Source: Terriglobia bacterium (GTDB taxonomy: Bacteria; Acidobacteriota; Terriglobia; 20CM-2-55-15). Taken from it: 64,000 bases of DNA. The notes beneath the pieces are model-generated. The model had not been told where the DNA came from. It made no database searches and saw nothing but the letters and a program-made list of their open reading frames with translations. The DNA lies in contig CAXWPJ010000011.1 in the NCBI GenBank assembly GCA_963664115.2, forward strand, positions 78,965 to 142,964. Direction: 5' to 3'. Shown one piece after another: positions 58,368 to 63,813 of the stretch; positions within the stretch are counted from its first letter, which is position 1; every line of letters starts with the position of its first letter. Both the position numbers and the translations under genes were made by a program.

Positions 58368-60395
58368 CTAGTCGTGAGTTCTGTTCCGGTAGAGTCGTTC
58401 GCAGTTTCGGTTAGTCTGGACGGTAGTCATGTCACGGTGCAAGAGTTTCAAAGATCCAGACTCAAGGAGAAATATGTATTCGTATACCGGCATGACCTCA
58501 ACCGTGGGTTGGGGGCGATCCGCTCGGCTGCGCTCCTGTCTTTCTCGAGTTATTGTCAAAAGTGCCGTGTTTAGCGGGCAGATTGATTCAAGCGGCGGCC
58601 TGATCGACTTGTGTCGCTTCGACACCATCGTTGAATTTCACTCCGATGATTACCTTGCTCAGATCATCGAATCCTCGTAATCGTCGCCAATTGTTCGTCA
58701 GCGCACCTGGCCCAGTTTGAACATCATGTGCAGCATGCCATCCCGTGTCAGGCAACCTCTGGATCGCTTCGTTCGGTGTCGAATGGTGGCAAAGGTCGAC
58801 TCAATGGGATTCGTCGTTCTGATGCGGGTCTGCTAAGTGCTTGGCCGGAAAGTTCGTAAAAGGCCAGCAGTTCCTCTCTGATCTTTCTGCAGGCTAGAGT
58901 GTGGCTTTCGGATACTTCGGTTCATAGGTTTCAATGAACAAGTCGAATGCCTTCTCGGCGTCTGCCTTCGTCTCGGCCTGCCAGATCGAGTGCAGGGCCT
59001 GTTTCGCCTTCGCCTGGACCGACTTGGGCAGGCAGTTGAGGACGTTCATGACTTTGTGCATCCAGCAACGTTGTTGACGTGTCTCGGGATAGATTTCCTC
59101 CAGTGCGGCCCAGAACCCCATCGCACCGTCACCGATGGCCAACTTCGGAACATTCATCCCACGGGACTTCAGCTTCAACAAGACCTCGCGCCATACTCTG
59201 TGTCGAGTTCCTCGATGTGACCGTGCTTCGATCGCCAGGAAACGCATTACTCTCCGCGTTCAGTTCACGCCGATCACGACCAATGCACACAACTTGGTTT
59301 GTTCCGCCCGAAGTCCGCTGTAGATGCCGTCGGCCCAGACATAGACCCAGCGATCTGCATCCAAACGCTCCTCGCATCCGAGGCGGTACTGTTCGCCCCA
59401 AACCTGTTTCAACCGCGATACCGTGCTCGCCGACAGACCCTGCGCCTGGGGACCGATCAAGAACTTTTAGGGCCTCATTCCATCTCGCCGCTGGAAACGC
59501 CTTTCAAGATACAACCACGGCACCGCTGCTTCCAGCGACTTCGTCTTCCGAATGTACGGTGGTACCAGGGCCGATCGGAACGTCACAGCTTCGCCCGTCT
59601 TGGCACGGACCTTCGGGATTTGGACTGTTACCGGACCCAATCCCGTCTGCAGTTCGCGTTCCGGCAGATAACCGTTGCGTACCACCCCGGCGTTTCCTGT
59701 CTCAGTTCGCCGGCCACCGTGCTGGGATAGCAGCTCTGCCAATTCGGCTTCCACTGCGCGTTGGATCAACGTTGCTGTGCCCCAACTCGCTAGTAGTTCT
59801 GTTACTGGATCCTCAATCGTTTCTCGACCTTCCGGTCCACTTCACGTTACTCTTGCTCACAGTGGCAAGTATCTCCTATGGTTGCTTTGAAGTTTTGTCA
59901 CAACAAATCAACCAGATACGCCGCACTTATTCAATCCCTCAAACACCAGATTCGGTTATAACTCAGTCTTTCTCTGCATTCTGCCGGTGAAATGCCACCG
60001 CAACTTAGGCCATCAGACAGCGCCCCGAACAATCCACCTAAAGTAGTGCCTTGCTGTCGCTCTATCCGAGTGGCCTCTGGGATAGGGTGTCTTGCTAGAA
60101 TCACCTCCGCTTCAAGCGCCGAATCGACTATTTCAAGCCGAGGCCTACTTTGTTCCGCGTTCCAGCCCGAAATCTCGCGTTCAAGATTCCTGAAAACGTC
60201 AACGTCGAGTCCGACCGACAGATGCACGCGGAGAGAATCGCTGGGGAAATTAGGCGGTCCACTGGCTATCGTAACAGGTACTCCGGACAGCGAAGGCAAT
60301 CGGCTTCCTATTAGATCCAACTCGTCGGGGCTCTGAAGCGACAGTACTAGCAGAATGACTGATAGCAGTTTCTGTTCCTCCTTCCCAGATTGCAT
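58368..60395 (-). pseudogene. hypothetical exported protein interrupted by IS256 copy 2
   Basis: Removing the IS and one TSD restores the frame ...SPAECRE|RQERSRADRPQ...RTHD*. Confidence 0.65.
58547..59964 (-). mobile_element. IS256-family element, copy 2 (inverted, many frameshifts)
   Basis: Same TIRs. GTCTTTCTC occurs on both flanks (9-bp TSD, offset by 1 nt on the right). Confidence 0.92.
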
Positions 60396-60450
60396 ACAGC
60401 TTGGGCTATAGCCTATGGTGTGAATATAGGCTATAGCCAATGCTGGGCGC

Positions 60451-60666
60451 ATGTCCAACGACATTTGTGTCGCGTTCGGCAAACGCCTACGGCAACTCCG
60501 CAAGAAGCAGAGCTGGTCGCAGGAAGAACTCGCGTATCGTGTCGGAATGGATGTCAGCTACTTGAGCGAATTAGAGAACGGAAAGAAGGAACCCTGCCTG
60601 ATCAAGATGAGTGACTTGGCGGGAGGACTCGGCACCGACCTGTCCAAGCTGCTGCGGGATCTCTAG
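60451..60666 (+). CDS. XRE-family HTH regulator (C-protein-like)
   Basis: FGKRLRQLRK...SQEELA...YLSELENGKKEP. Confidence 0.9.
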   Translation: MSNDICVAFGKRLRQLRKKQSWSQEELAYRVGMDVSYLSELENGKKEPCLIKMSDLAGGLGTDLSKLLRDL

Positions 60667-60812
60667 AAAAACAGAAACTCGACAGCAGTCGTTCGCCATC
60701 GAAACCGCGACTTCCCAACCCCACTTCCCGTCGATAAACCAGCCGCGCGCGTAGTCCAAGCCCTCTCCTGCCGTGCTTTGCCATCTAGCACCCGACCTGC
60801 AACCACAGTCAC

Positions 60813-61040
60813 ATGCCAATCGCTCTAATCGCAATCAGCAAAGCCACAGCCCTCCAGGTACAGAGTCAGATCCTCGGCTGTGAACAATGTGCGGACGAAG
60901 CTGAGATACCGCTGTGCTGGCTATTGGATGATGCGACGGGGCGGGATGGGACGACGTACTGACTACTTGCTGTCAGAGGCCGCGAAGTGCCCGAAGTGTA
61001 TGGGCGAGGTTAGCGAGAAGACGTTGGTGGAGTGGTGTAA
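60813..61040 (+). CDS. small zinc-finger-like protein (CxxC...CxxC) with one frameshift
   Basis: MPIALIAISKATALQVQSQILGCEQC...EIPL, then a frameshift near 60957, then TDYLLSEAAKCPKCMGEVSEKTLVEW. 3' end uncertain. Confidence 0.5.
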
Positions 61041-61102
61041 TTCAAGCTACCACCTTCCCAGTTCCCTTGACTCCGTTCCGGCCCGTACCATAGAATCCGC
61101 AC

Positions 61103-61313
61103 ATGGAAATCACGCTCAGCACTCACGTTGAACAGCCTGGAAGAAAGGATCGCACCTGCAGCACCAATCTGTGTTCTTGTAGTCGCGGGCGAGGGAATAC
61201 CTGCGATCATAGGCGGTTGTGGTGACGATGGCAGTGGCGTACCCCCGAACGTTGTAATCATAAGACCGGACGGCTCAATCATCACGCCAACGGCGTGCAT
61301 TGATCCTAACTAA
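61103..61313 (+). CDS. leader/core peptide 1 (about 69 aa after removing one extra C near 61136)
   Basis: MEITLSTHVEQ-LEERIAP AAPICVLVVAGEGIPAIIGGCGDDGSGVPPNVVIIRPDGSIITPTACIDPN. Confidence 0.7.
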
Positions 61314-61322
61314 AGCTAAGTA

Positions 61323-61522
61323 ATGGAACTCGAACTAAGCACTCACATCGAGGAACTGGAACAGCGTATAGCACCTAGTACGGGCCCGATAACCTGCTTG
61401 ACCGTTAATGCCGGAGAGGAATGACCACCGACGGTTGTATCGGCAGTCCGCTGCCCCAGCCGTGGATCATCATCAACAAGCATGATGGTACGTGGTTCGC
61501 GCCGAATATCCGCTTCCTGTAG
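61323..61522 (+). CDS. leader/core peptide 2 (33 aa as sequenced; about 66 aa if one G is restored near 61419)
   Basis: MELELSTHIEELEQRIAP STGPITCLTVNAGE(G)MTTDGCIGSPLPQPWIIINKHDGTWFAPNIRFL. Confidence 0.7.
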
Positions 61523-61532
61523 TGGAGGATCA

Positions 61533-61715
61533 ATGGAACTCAGCACGAACATTGAAGAGTTAGAAGACCGCATCGCACCGGGTCAGGCACCTTTCTGTAT
61601 TGCAGTGACTGCAGGCGCAGGAGCCGAGTTTGACAGTGGCGAGGTGTGCAACGGCAGCGACGAACGGACGCCTCCAGAAATCATCCTCAATGGTGAACTA
61701 ATTCGTCATCCGTAG
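61533..61715 (+). CDS. leader/core peptide 3 (60 aa, intact)
   Basis: GGAGG RBS. MELSTNIEELEDRIAP GQAPFCIAVTAGAGAEFDSGEVCNGSDERTPPEIILNGELIRHP. Confidence 0.8.
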   Translation: MELSTNIEELEDRIAPGQAPFCIAVTAGAGAEFDSGEVCNGSDERTPPEIILNGELIRHP

Positions 61716-61938
61716 ATAACCTGCCCGCTACCGGCCTTTTGCCTGTCGTTCCTCGATACGCCCCCAATGAGCTATATTCCCTTCGATTTCAACGGGATAC
61801 TGCCACAACCGAAGCTCGACAATTCTCAACGTCCGACAAGGTCGTTTAACAGGCGTTGAGAATTTGACAGCGCCTAACTCCGTCCTCTAGTATGTTTTAG
61901 CGTGTTTATAGCAGTTATTTTAGCTACTCACTTTAAAC

Positions 61939-62025
61939 ATGGAATCTGGCACCAAACTCGGTCACTACGAGATCTCAACGCTCTTAGGTAGGGGTGGACA
62001 TGGGGGCAGTGTGGCCCGCTCCCGA
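61939..62025 (+). pseudogene. N-terminal stub of a Hanks-type Ser/Thr kinase
   Basis: MESGTKLGHYEISTLLGRGG-(frameshift)-MGAVW is the Gly-rich loop. Nothing kinase-like follows. Confidence 0.6.
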
Positions 62026-62142
62026 CAATCCAGCAGGAGGCAAGAACGATTGAGCGATCGAAAAGCGGTTGGAGATATCGAGTTAGAACAGAATTTATCG
62101 CACTAGTGCTCTGTCGGGCTATGCCTCCTCGATACGGATCTG

Positions 62143-63527
62143 GAGTTATAACCGAATCTGGTGTTTGAGGGATTGAATAAGAGCGGCGTATCTGGTTGAT
62201 TTGTTGTGACAAAACTTCAAAGCAACCATAGGAGATACGCCACTGTGAGCAAGAGTAACGTGAATGGACCGGAAGGTCGAGAAACGATTGAGGATCCAGT
62301 AACAGAACTACTACGAGTTGGGGCACAGCAACTGATCCAACGCGCAGTGGAAGCCGAATTGGCAGAGCTGCTATCCCAGCACGGTGGCCGGCGAACTGAG
62401 ACAGGAAACGCCGGGGTGGTACGCAACGGTTATCTGCCGGAACGCGAACTGCAGACGGGATTGGGTCCGGTAACAGTCCAAATCCCGAAGGTCCGTGCCA
62501 AGACGGGCGAAGCTGTGACGTTCCGATCGGCCCTGGTACCACCGTACATTCGGAAGACGAAGTCGCTGGAAGCAGCGGTGCCGTGGTTGTATTTGAAAGG
62601 CGTTTCCAGCGGCGAGATGGGTGAGGCCCTAAAAGTTCTTGTCGGTCCCCAGGCGCAGGGTCTGTCGGCGAGCACGGTATCGCGGTTGAAACAGGTTTGG
62701 GGCGAACAGTACCGCCTCGGATGCGAGGAGCGTTTGGATGCAGATCGCTGGGTCTATGTCTGGGCCGACGGCATCTACAGCGGACTTCGGGCGGAACAAA
62801 CCAAGTTGTGTGCATTGGTCGTGATCGGCGTGAATGAACGCGGAGAGAAGCGTTTCCTGGCGATCGAAGACGGTGTACGGGAATCGACACAGAGTTGGCG
62901 CGAGGTCTTGTTGAAGCTGAAGTCCCGTGGGATGAATGTTCCGAAGTTGGCCATCGGTGACGGTGCGATGGGGTTCTGGGCCGCACTGGAGGAAATCTAT
63001 CCCGAGACACGTCAACAACGTTGCTGGATGCACAAAGTCATGAACGTCCTCAACTGCCTGCCCAAGTCGGTCCAGGCGAAGGCGAAACAGGCCCTGCACT
63101 CGATCTGGCAGGCCGAGACGAAGGCAGACGCCGAGAAGGCATTCGACTTGTTCATTGAAACCTATGAACCGAAGTATCCGAAAGCCACACTCTGCCTGCA
63201 GAAAGACAGAGAGGAACTGCTGGCCTTTTACGACTTTCCGGCCAAGCACTGGCAGAGCATCAGAACGACGAATCCCATTGAGTCGACCTTTGCCACCATT
63301 CGACACCGAACGAAGCGATCCAGAGGTTGCCTGACACGGGATGGCATGCTGCACATGATGTTCAAACTGGGCCAGTGCGCTGAGAACAATTGGCGACGAT
63401 TACGAGGATTCGATGATCTGAGCAAGGTAATCATCGGAGTGAAATTCAACGATGGTGTCGAAGCGACACAAGTCGATCAGGCCGCCGCTTGAATCAATCT
63501 CCTAAACACCACTTTTGACAATAACTC
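62143..63527 (+). mobile_element. IS256-family element, copy 3 (1385 bp)
   Basis: Same TIRs and identical translated transposase as copy 1. No matching TSD. Confidence 0.95.
62206..63492 (+). CDS. IS256 transposase
   Basis: 428 aa, identical to 56603..57889. Confidence 0.95.
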   Translation: MTKLQSNHRRYATVSKSNVNGPEGRETIEDPVTELLRVGAQQLIQRAVEAELAELLSQHGGRRTETGNAGVVRNGYLPERELQTGLGPVTVQIPKVRAKTGEAVTFRSALVPPYIRKTKSLEAAVPWLYLKGVSSGEMGEALKVLVGPQAQGLSASTVSRLKQVWGEQYRLGCEERLDADRWVYVWADGIYSGLRAEQTKLCALVVIGVNERGEKRFLAIEDGVRESTQSWREVLLKLKSRGMNVPKLAIGDGAMGFWAALEEIYPETRQQRCWMHKVMNVLNCLPKSVQAKAKQALHSIWQAETKADAEKAFDLFIETYEPKYPKATLCLQKDREELLAFYDFPAKHWQSIRTTNPIESTFATIRHRTKRSRGCLTRDGMLHMMFKLGQCAENNWRRLRGFDDLSKVIIGVKFNDGVEATQVDQAAA

Positions 63528-63813
63528 TTGCTTAGGCAGCGGTGATTCAATCGCTTGAGGACGGTCGCAACTCCGAATGTTGACCGAGTTTTCGCCACCA
63601 ACGTGCGCGGCTGTGTGCGTACACAAAAGACCCCACCCCCAAAGGGCCCACACCCCCCTGGCCCTGCCCACTCGTCGACCGTCTGCGAGCAAACCCTTCG
63701 CGTTTTGACCGTGGGCCGGGCTGCCGGATACTAGCCATTTTCCTTCTGATTGCATTACCGAATGACATAACTATATATTGACATCAGTACAGCGCGTGCC
63801 TATATTGATTGTT

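Follow-up and report, generated by a model that had tools for sequence, protein, structure and literature searches.

Tandem ExLExRIAP leader peptides in a Terriglobia bacterium and a candidate RRE/M50/HlyD fusion for their export

The tandem peptide genes and their mobile setting

The window analysed here, 64,000 nucleotides from a Terriglobia bacterium, is the tail of contig C11 (78965-142964) in an assembly of 4.89 Mb, 12 contigs and 97% completeness. Near its end lie three small co-oriented ORFs, each separated from the next by 9 bp (Table 1). A sequence-only reading had described a tandem array of peptides with a common leader, and the array is real: the leaders are as quoted there, and the two frameshifts of the window are missing both from another copy of the locus, on contig C5, and from contigs of four runs. 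All of them (3/3) contain the segment C-x-x-V-x-A-G-[EA]-G, and the second Cys, announced at 14-17 residues further on, was measured at 16 (ORF1), 14 (ORF2) and 17 (ORF3); ORF1 has a third Cys close to its C-terminus. The proposal that these are genuine leader-plus-core precursors is supported.

Table 1. Features of the peptide locus and related genes elsewhere in the genome. Positions without a contig prefix are those of the window.
Feature	Position	Strand	Remarks
IS256-family copy	58546..59965	-	Target duplication; absent from C5 copy of locus; incidental
XRE-family HTH regulator, 71 aa	60451..60666	+	Pfam HTH_3, E 3.3e-13
Small ORF with two CxxC pairs	60813..61093	+	92 aa on C5; window copy broken by assembly errors
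Sigma-70-like promoter	61067..61096	+	6 bases upstream of ORF1 start; 10/12 consensus match
ORF1	61103-61313	+	69-aa precursor: 18-aa leader ending IAP, 51-aa core
ORF2	61323-61523	+	66-aa precursor: 18-aa leader, 48-aa core
ORF3	61533-61715	+	60-aa precursor: 16-aa leader, 44-aa core; GGAGG ribosome-binding site
44-bp imperfect palindrome, variant-spacer type	61820..61864	+	Two 18-bp arms, 6-bp spacer
Promoter-like site and broken start of Ser/Thr kinase gene	61864..62106	+	C5 counterpart: Pkinase, E 3.6e-29
IS256-family copy	62140..63530	+	Incidental
Second copy of locus	C5:301730-297835		Without either window frameshift
Stand-alone leader gene	C5:58869-58672		Same core type as the three tandem genes
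Decayed leader copies	C10:414596 and C12:439300		
RRE/M50/HlyD fusion orthologue	C4:46544-44265		HExxH and LDG motifs intact

Two of the ORFs are hidden in the window by single-base frameshifts, as had been pointed out: there is one extra base near 61136 in ORF1, and one G is missing near 61417 in ORF2. The G is present in the contigs of all four runs compared. The ORF1 frame is likewise restored in 4/4, with the one-base deletion listed in three of them; for the remaining run, X3, only a substitution is listed, yet its contig shows the same 7 gaps as that of run X1. Both frameshifts are assembly errors: the C5 copy and the four runs' contigs lack them, and an adjoining IS256 copy is burdened with errors in like measure. 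For ORF3 no run (0) lists a frame-breaking change, ORF2 is present in the protein database at its intact 66 aa (P0001), and the stops that give peptides of 60-69 aa are confirmed in the C5 copy and run contigs. Four runs labelled sponge metagenome, sharing only 6-13% of words, were left out of this comparison, and a sponge habitat is therefore not claimed. Between the leaders of ORF2 and ORF3, 13 codons show 8 synonymous and 2 non-synonymous changes.

Errors abound in the contig tail from 58500 to 62200: over 1.4 kb, the middle IS256 copy shows 26 gap openings, versus 0 for two neighbouring copies. The tail differs from C5 in IS content and in the DNA past the palindromic site: the window has an extra IS256, ORF2 is split by an IS1380-like element on C5 but not in the window, and the two copies run into different DNA after 61853, inside the 44-bp palindrome. 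The tail is a strain variant or a chimeric read, and the window probably represents a low-coverage variant of the C5 locus.

Upstream, the XRE regulator is as proposed. The zinc-finger ORF of the earlier reading, with its Cys pairs, is intact on C5, while searches of Pfam and NCBIfam gave it no family match; its 3' part is repeated at several genome positions. A promoter search found 3 sites versus 1.3 ± 1.2 in shuffles, which is weak taken alone; the spacer of the promoter in front of ORF1 becomes 17 once an extra base at 61087 is corrected, and a transcript of the peptide genes from it would be leaderless. The same promoter and first codons (61066-61113) are reused by different small ORFs at C10:414505 and C12:24888, and one run contig type links the ORF1 promoter to the palindromic site across other cargo.

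The array had been placed on a mobile element, a claim that needs dividing. The flanking IS256 copies are generic, there being 49 full-length copies in the genome, together with ~70 copies of a PF13701 element that we take to belong to the IS1380-like family. What does speak for mobility is a set of plasmid or ICE remnants upstream (a resolvase, an IrrE-like fragment and RHH/ParA remnants) and, at a distance of 105 bp downstream, a palindromic cassette-boundary site of 44 bp. A second such site lies at about 47750 in the window. Across the genome the palindrome has 252 hits (222 at E<1e-4; reversed control 0) in 48 clusters, and the sites bound arrays of 0.3-6 kb units; close pairs are co-oriented in 120 of 172 cases. 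They are tied to the starts and ends of Ser/Thr kinase genes, and 13 of the 27 variant-spacer sites precede a kinase start. A count per genome gave 117 sites here; four congeners have 72, 36, 8 and 0, and the 36 remaining genomes yielded 1, making the site nearly genus-specific. Two sites enclose a unit of 636 bp that is filled by the stand-alone leader gene on C5, and a leader gene of one congener also sits in such a unit; the cassette status of the three tandem genes is only partial, since they have the site on one side only.

Recombinases adjoining the sites are either Xer-like or part of an IS91-family element with a tyrosine recombinase; five of the six copies of the latter recombinase-plus-transposase element lie 176-371 bp from a site. 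At C5:52189-53139 (L002:3190-4140) a single Xer-like tyrosine recombinase stands between two oppositely oriented variant-spacer sites. The genome's one true IntI (440 bits, cut-off 265), at C9:714608-715549 (L158:5594-6874), is accompanied by a row of small same-strand ORFs and is ~196 kb from the nearest listed site. An integron reading was dropped for want of an IntI integrase beside the arrays, which look like a cassette system of another kind.

The leader family and a candidate partner in trans

Small ORFs of related genomes were searched with a profile HMM of the leader, as the sequence-only reading had proposed. True copies, from which the HMM was in part built, score at least 26.6 bits, versus 9.2 bits for the top scorer among 112,915 reversed ORFs, so chance does not account for the matches. 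At E<=0.01 the leader is found in 19 of 24 genomes of the same family and in 0/16 genomes from other families of the class; it is thus a family-wide trait, and the cores behind it within the family are very diverse. This genome has four further whole leader genes, one being the stand-alone gene on C5 and the other three coding for short Gly-rich peptides on C6 and C10, besides two decayed copies. The Gly-rich peptides are in tandem (L003:9756-10406 on C6; C10:411000-411165) between pepA and queD, each region having ribosome-binding sites and hairpin terminators of its own, and similar peptides adjoin pepA in several relatives.

A scan of species genomes for the exact pattern IEELEERIAP gave 58 loci in many phyla, with tails from 4 to >1,400 residues behind the leader; the pattern forms the N-terminus of three large proteins, and two of the hits (L097, L121) are chance matches within ordinary proteins. 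The 8 loci from a single-protein scan share the leader only, their cores being rich in Gly/Asn/Pro, and several are in runs of four or five. As such tandem runs are common elsewhere, an array is an ordinary layout for this leader. Leader-profile scans of metagenome and viral contigs yielded 0 confirmed loci. In another precursor type (L027:9740-10225, P0025-P0053) a unit of leader plus NHNET-type core is repeated three or four times; these adjoin TPR and kinase-TPR genes. In several phyla, leader peptides carry repeated YEGQPGNQG cores (L028:9034-10087, L074, L083, L119, L124), and one of these adjoins a TIGR02466 2OG-Fe(II) oxygenase.

No maturase was seen in the neighbourhood of the peptide genes, in agreement with the earlier remark that processing would have to be in trans. 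Inspection of leader neighbourhoods in relatives turned up a candidate: at the queA-clpB locus, beside leader ORFs, lies a gene that joins an RRE-like domain, an M50 protease and an HlyD adaptor. Its orthologue in this genome is on C4, far from the peptide genes on C11. The gene order at queA-clpB in relatives (L047:1081-8998, L049, L050, L052, L057, L032, L035) is conserved, running from the fusion through a tiny leader peptide and then a membrane HD-GYP/GAF/GGDEF protein to a large kinase; the tiny peptides have cores of 7-10 residues that vary between genomes, and the arrangement resembles peptide pheromone signalling. Neither the tiny peptide nor the HD-GYP/GGDEF sensor was found at the fusion locus of this genome.

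The best NCBIfam match of the C4 fusion is the daptide leader peptidase (NF041824; E 1.7e-67, profile positions 5-361 of 379), at 228 bits, under the cut-off of 300. Its RRE drew no hit from Pfam PqqD, and the profile of the fusion family shows a weak likeness to lasso RREs (E 0.54-0.65). The fusion gene is found in 20 of the 24 family genomes. Leader and fusion occur together in 18 of these, both are missing from three and three are discordant, kin not being independent in this count; the three genomes with neither all belong to genus g3 and are 98-100% complete, and two of the discordant ones are 68% and 81% complete. A fusion gene adjoins 6 of 20 hand-picked leader loci, and conversely a leader ORF lies within ~0.7 kb of the fusion in 6 of 20 fetched fusion loci, the other 14 being of paralogous type (3), at a contig edge (5), IS-broken (3) or without a peptide (3). 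An RRE/M50 gene is in the available flank of 29 of the 58 IEELEERIAP loci, and among the 22 loci whose flanks span the full 12 kb the number is 9; the chance of such a gene per 12-kb window is ~0.6%, as estimated from this genome. Since most leader genes sit apart from the fusion, action in trans would be normal in the family.

A complex prediction of the RRE and M50 parts with the leader scored 0.44, versus 0.00 for the best control, which is weak support: the mark is reached by 116 of 157 solved pairs and by 2 of 215 mismatched pairs, and at <=0.60 by only 18 solved pairs plus both mismatches. The runs of this prediction agree in at least 72% of contacts and the partner pLDDT is at least 47; the result may reflect the solved RRE-leader complexes that exist. 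M50 proteases usually cut membrane-embedded helices, and the leader here is acidic and soluble.

On these grounds we think it probable that the leader is bound and cut after its proline, and that the module behind it leaves the cell through the C4 fusion and a TolC, forming a disulfide outside with no tailoring enzyme involved. The three genes would yield precursors of an acidic ExLExRIAP leader and a module of ~45 residues; the RRE-like domain of the membrane fusion likely binds the leader, its M50 part likely cuts after the leader proline (IAP), and the module likely travels by way of HlyD and one of five TolC-family proteins to the outside, where the two cysteines would form the disulfide. 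The five TolC-family loci all lie away from the C4 fusion, next to which neither an ABC ATPase nor a TolC is encoded.

This genome also has a paralogous machine with its own channel and motor. At C2:654956-671898 (L046:2957-19899) a cluster groups a TonB receptor, TolC, HlyD, GAF-HlyD, M50-HlyD and a SecA-like protein with a LEPR-XLL giant of >1,950 residues, which amounts to a pump-less secretion system with a second SecA. Handling of the tandem peptides by this machine would exploit a complete cluster (TolC, HlyD, GAF-HlyD, M50-HlyD and SecA-like ATPase) and leaders that are alike (ExLExR), the exact IEELEERIAP leader of three large proteins adding to the case. We nevertheless hold it to be quite improbable: identity of the C2 protease to the C4 clade is no more than 27-30%, and short leader peptides adjoin that clade, whereas none was found at the three fetched loci of paralogous type. 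The giant protein, scoring 34.3 for NF012209 (LEPR-XLL; cut-off 17), passes the LEPR-8K cut-off; the tandem peptides miss LEPR-8K and match 0 families, which also speaks against the C2 machine. The resemblance to the LEPR-XLL motif remarked on earlier is meaningful, given the M50/HlyD cluster beside a LEPR giant and the large proteins begun by the leader, but it does not place the peptides in that family.

The lack of an adjacent ATPase and TolC would also fit a core that is released by cleavage and stays periplasmic or cytoplasmic with HlyD as a scaffold, or peptides that act as decoys titrating the protease; three tandem copies of one leader could saturate the RRE. We give this the smallest credence of the readings weighed here. 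The full HlyD hairpin is retained in the C4 fusion, and the core is conserved independently of the leader, recurring in lipoprotein-like and double-glycine forms, and is therefore not filler.

A conserved core behind four kinds of N-terminus

The cores had been called hypervariable; profile and pairwise alignments contradict this, the three being homologous. On sequence and structure prediction the core is one conserved small beta module of ~45 residues. AlphaFold2 modelled ORF2 at pLDDT 75.8 and pTM 0.49, with a leader helix at 2-16 and strands at 25-29, 33-35 and 48-52; Foldseek gave the model no match at E<=0.001. The three peptides found no family in Pfam or NCBIfam, and in the ESM Atlas all hits to ORF2 stayed under 0.9, with none for a core.

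Core profile searches gave 9, 50 and 25 hits. A core HMM built from 30 of 62 fetched short proteins found 40 of the 62 at >=22 bits. Sorted by our own hydrophobicity and motif rule, the N-termini of these 40 are leaders in 29 (3 from this organism), Sec-like in 4, lipoprotein-like in 5 plus 1 borderline, and of double-glycine type in 1; the core thus occurs behind three other kinds of N-terminus, starting a few residues past the end of every tag type. Pairwise comparisons, which do not depend on the HMM, confirm the homology: Sec-like P0065 and leader-bearing P0014 are identical at 26 of 36 positions (72%), P0020 and ORF1 at 21 of 47, and P0040, with its double-glycine leader, and ORF2 at 19 of 52. 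The giant proteins P0017, P0031 and P0032 were dropped as core homologues, being repeat-driven false matches.

This occurrence of one core behind signal-peptide-like N-termini is the best argument that the leader is likely an export tag cut at or near its proline, and it suggests that the widespread ELEERIAP leader is functionally equivalent to a signal peptide. Among 30 cores, uncorrected for relatedness, the Cys pair is complete in 16 and missing in 13, with a single Cys in 1; since the two residues are gained and lost together, as the partners of a disulfide would be, we predict that they form one. Export and a disulfide, both suggested beforehand, are accordingly likely.

The same observations bear on the idea of a classical RiPP, whose leader would recruit a tailoring enzyme in trans (a radical SAM protein or similar) to the cysteines. 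Other leader-bearing proteins do match daptide and ammosamide leaders weakly (NCBIfam E 0.01-0.04), one SPASM-domain gene lies at C9:1200890, and a TIGR02466 2OG oxygenase adjoins one relative's leader gene. Yet the genome has 0 PqqD hits and 0 YcaO hits, the Cys come and go as a pair, and signal-peptide-like forms of the core would bypass cytoplasmic leader-dependent enzymes, so that a tailoring enzyme would not be needed. We judge a tailored RiPP very unlikely, and with it the earlier notion of a core that depends on radical SAM or YcaO chemistry.

The core was found in 0 of 34 family genomes (13 candidates scored per genome) and 0 of 400 phylum genomes, and for that reason it appears to be patchy acquired cargo. 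Nor was a core of this type seen beside the fusion gene at the 58 pattern loci (0/58), so the link between core and fusion rests on the leader. The peptide genes would then be horizontally acquired cargo, plugged into a family-wide machine.

As to what the module does, the suggestion of a toxin fares poorly in its cationic form, the cores being acidic (2 K+R, 3-7 D+E in ORF2, ORF3 and the stand-alone C5 gene). Our best guess is that the released module is an extracellular ligand or binding module, most likely not a membrane-killing toxin, given that lipoprotein-like forms would sit on the surface and that relatives pair leader peptides with a membrane sensor. An extracellular signal or ligand is a possibility that we entertain tentatively, surface binding, metal binding and a matrix role sharing what remains.

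Possible decay, known systems and meaning

Several parts of the system are damaged. An IS256 copy removes ~26 C-terminal residues of the C4 fusion, and this junction is the only form seen in 4/4 runs; the fusion is IS-broken in G001, G002, G004 and G013, and three relatives beyond these four have a stop or frameshift in it, which may be read errors. The IS1380-like element splits ORF2 on C5. In runs X5 and X6 a 2-bp deletion affects ORF2, while ORF1 is interrupted by foreign letters, perhaps, from contig ends only, an insertion in X5; a 19-base motif from the letters at the X5 break had no exact match in the assembly. With ORF1 and ORF2 broken in some populations, the system may be decaying in this lineage.

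One could go further and hold that the pathway is dead here, the fusion inactivated and the peptide genes relics eroded by IS elements. The truncated fusion in every run, the two independent breaks of ORF2 and one of ORF1, the decayed leader copies, the IS-broken fusions of relatives and the missing sensor genes at the fusion locus would all fit. However, the protease is whole, as is most of the HlyD part, with no frameshift; ORF3, the stand-alone C5 gene and the three Gly-rich leader genes are whole; and with so many IS256 and IS1380-like copies, hits are expected in any dispensable gene. We consider a dead pathway unlikely, while taking it more seriously than the other alternatives.

The proposed pathway has partial counterparts among known systems. 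Peptidase-containing ABC transporters of the C39 type, with HlyD and TolC, export double-glycine peptides. Likeness lies in the proposed coupling of leader cleavage to export through an adaptor and TolC, and in P0040, a core with a double-glycine leader. Here, however, a zinc intramembrane protease is joined to the adaptor, where C39 systems join a cysteine protease to the ABC pump, and an ATPase is not adjacent. The three tandem leaders end in IAP rather than a double glycine, and C39 genes are found at two genome loci. As regards type I secretion, HlyD domains in the C4 fusion and TolC-family loci elsewhere are present, whereas a dedicated ABC ATPase beside the C4 gene is absent.

Daptides are a further close system. 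According to the available part of the daptide preprint, their leader ELExMEAP has Pro at -1 and is removed by an RRE-peptidase (bioRxiv 10.1101/2023.03.08.531785). Compared with MpaA/DapA and MpaP/DapP as presented there, the leader end AP, E(-8), L(-7) and an acidic residue at -6 are shared, as are several tandem precursors and leader removal by an RRE plus an M50 protease, here predicted. The differences are that the protease here is HlyD-fused and distant, that R/K-I replaces M-E at -4/-3, and that the core is a predicted beta module, the daptide core being an aliphatic helix. The three peptides share E/Q-L-E..AP without M(-4), daptide_123 hits none of them, and instead of daptides' invariant C-terminal Thr they end in N, L and P. 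The tailoring genes DapB/C/D/M (dehydrogenase, aminotransferase, methyltransferase) are absent beside the peptides and beside the C4 gene.

LEPR-XLL (NF012209) is described as a domain of 24 aa at the N-terminus of giant proteins associated with T1SS (bioRxiv 10.64898/2026.03.19.712371); the portion of that paper available to us makes no mention of M50. Common ground is an ExLExR-type N-terminal motif and, in this genome, a cluster with a paralogous M50/HlyD fusion; the tandem peptides differ in their 60-69 aa, lacking a very large repeat-rich body, and in belonging with another fusion clade. Eep/RseP is an M50 protease that matures peptide pheromones of Gram-positive bacteria by cutting hydrophobic signal peptides (PMC10202637); HlyD and RiPP have 0 occurrences in the part of that review at hand. 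As far as these excerpts go, the likeness is that of an M50 protease releasing small extracellular peptides, relatives' leader peptides standing between the fusion and a c-di-GMP sensor; Eep works without HlyD, and cores here have 44-51 residues, not 7-10.

The leader, the RRE/M50/HlyD fusion and the core found no description in the literature searched, which included few subscription papers; supplementary RRE tables of the daptide preprint may list the family. Judged from sequence, the system would work as a daptide-like pair of leader and peptidase coupled to export of type I kind, and falls outside daptides, LEPR-XLL proteins and peptidase-containing transporters alike. The locus contributes the swappable folded cargo and the arrangement in trans.

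More broadly, ExLExR leaders (ELEERIAP, LEPR-XLL) may, speculatively, be the signal of an undescribed double-membrane secretion route in which an RRE/site-2-protease/HlyD protein replaces the ABC peptidase-transporter, with cargo from 4 to >1,400 residues and genus-level cassette exchange at the 44-bp site; we lean against this wider reading without dismissing it. This copy of the locus may itself be on the way out. The core behind four kinds of N-terminus is nonetheless a natural swap experiment that places the leader cut site, and the role of the fusion is directly testable with a 60-residue substrate. If the reading is true, it would account for the LEPR-XLL motif of giant proteins, which has long lacked an explanation, and provide a short tag by which small folded proteins could be secreted, and cassette exchange would give these bacteria a plug-in library of secreted modules.
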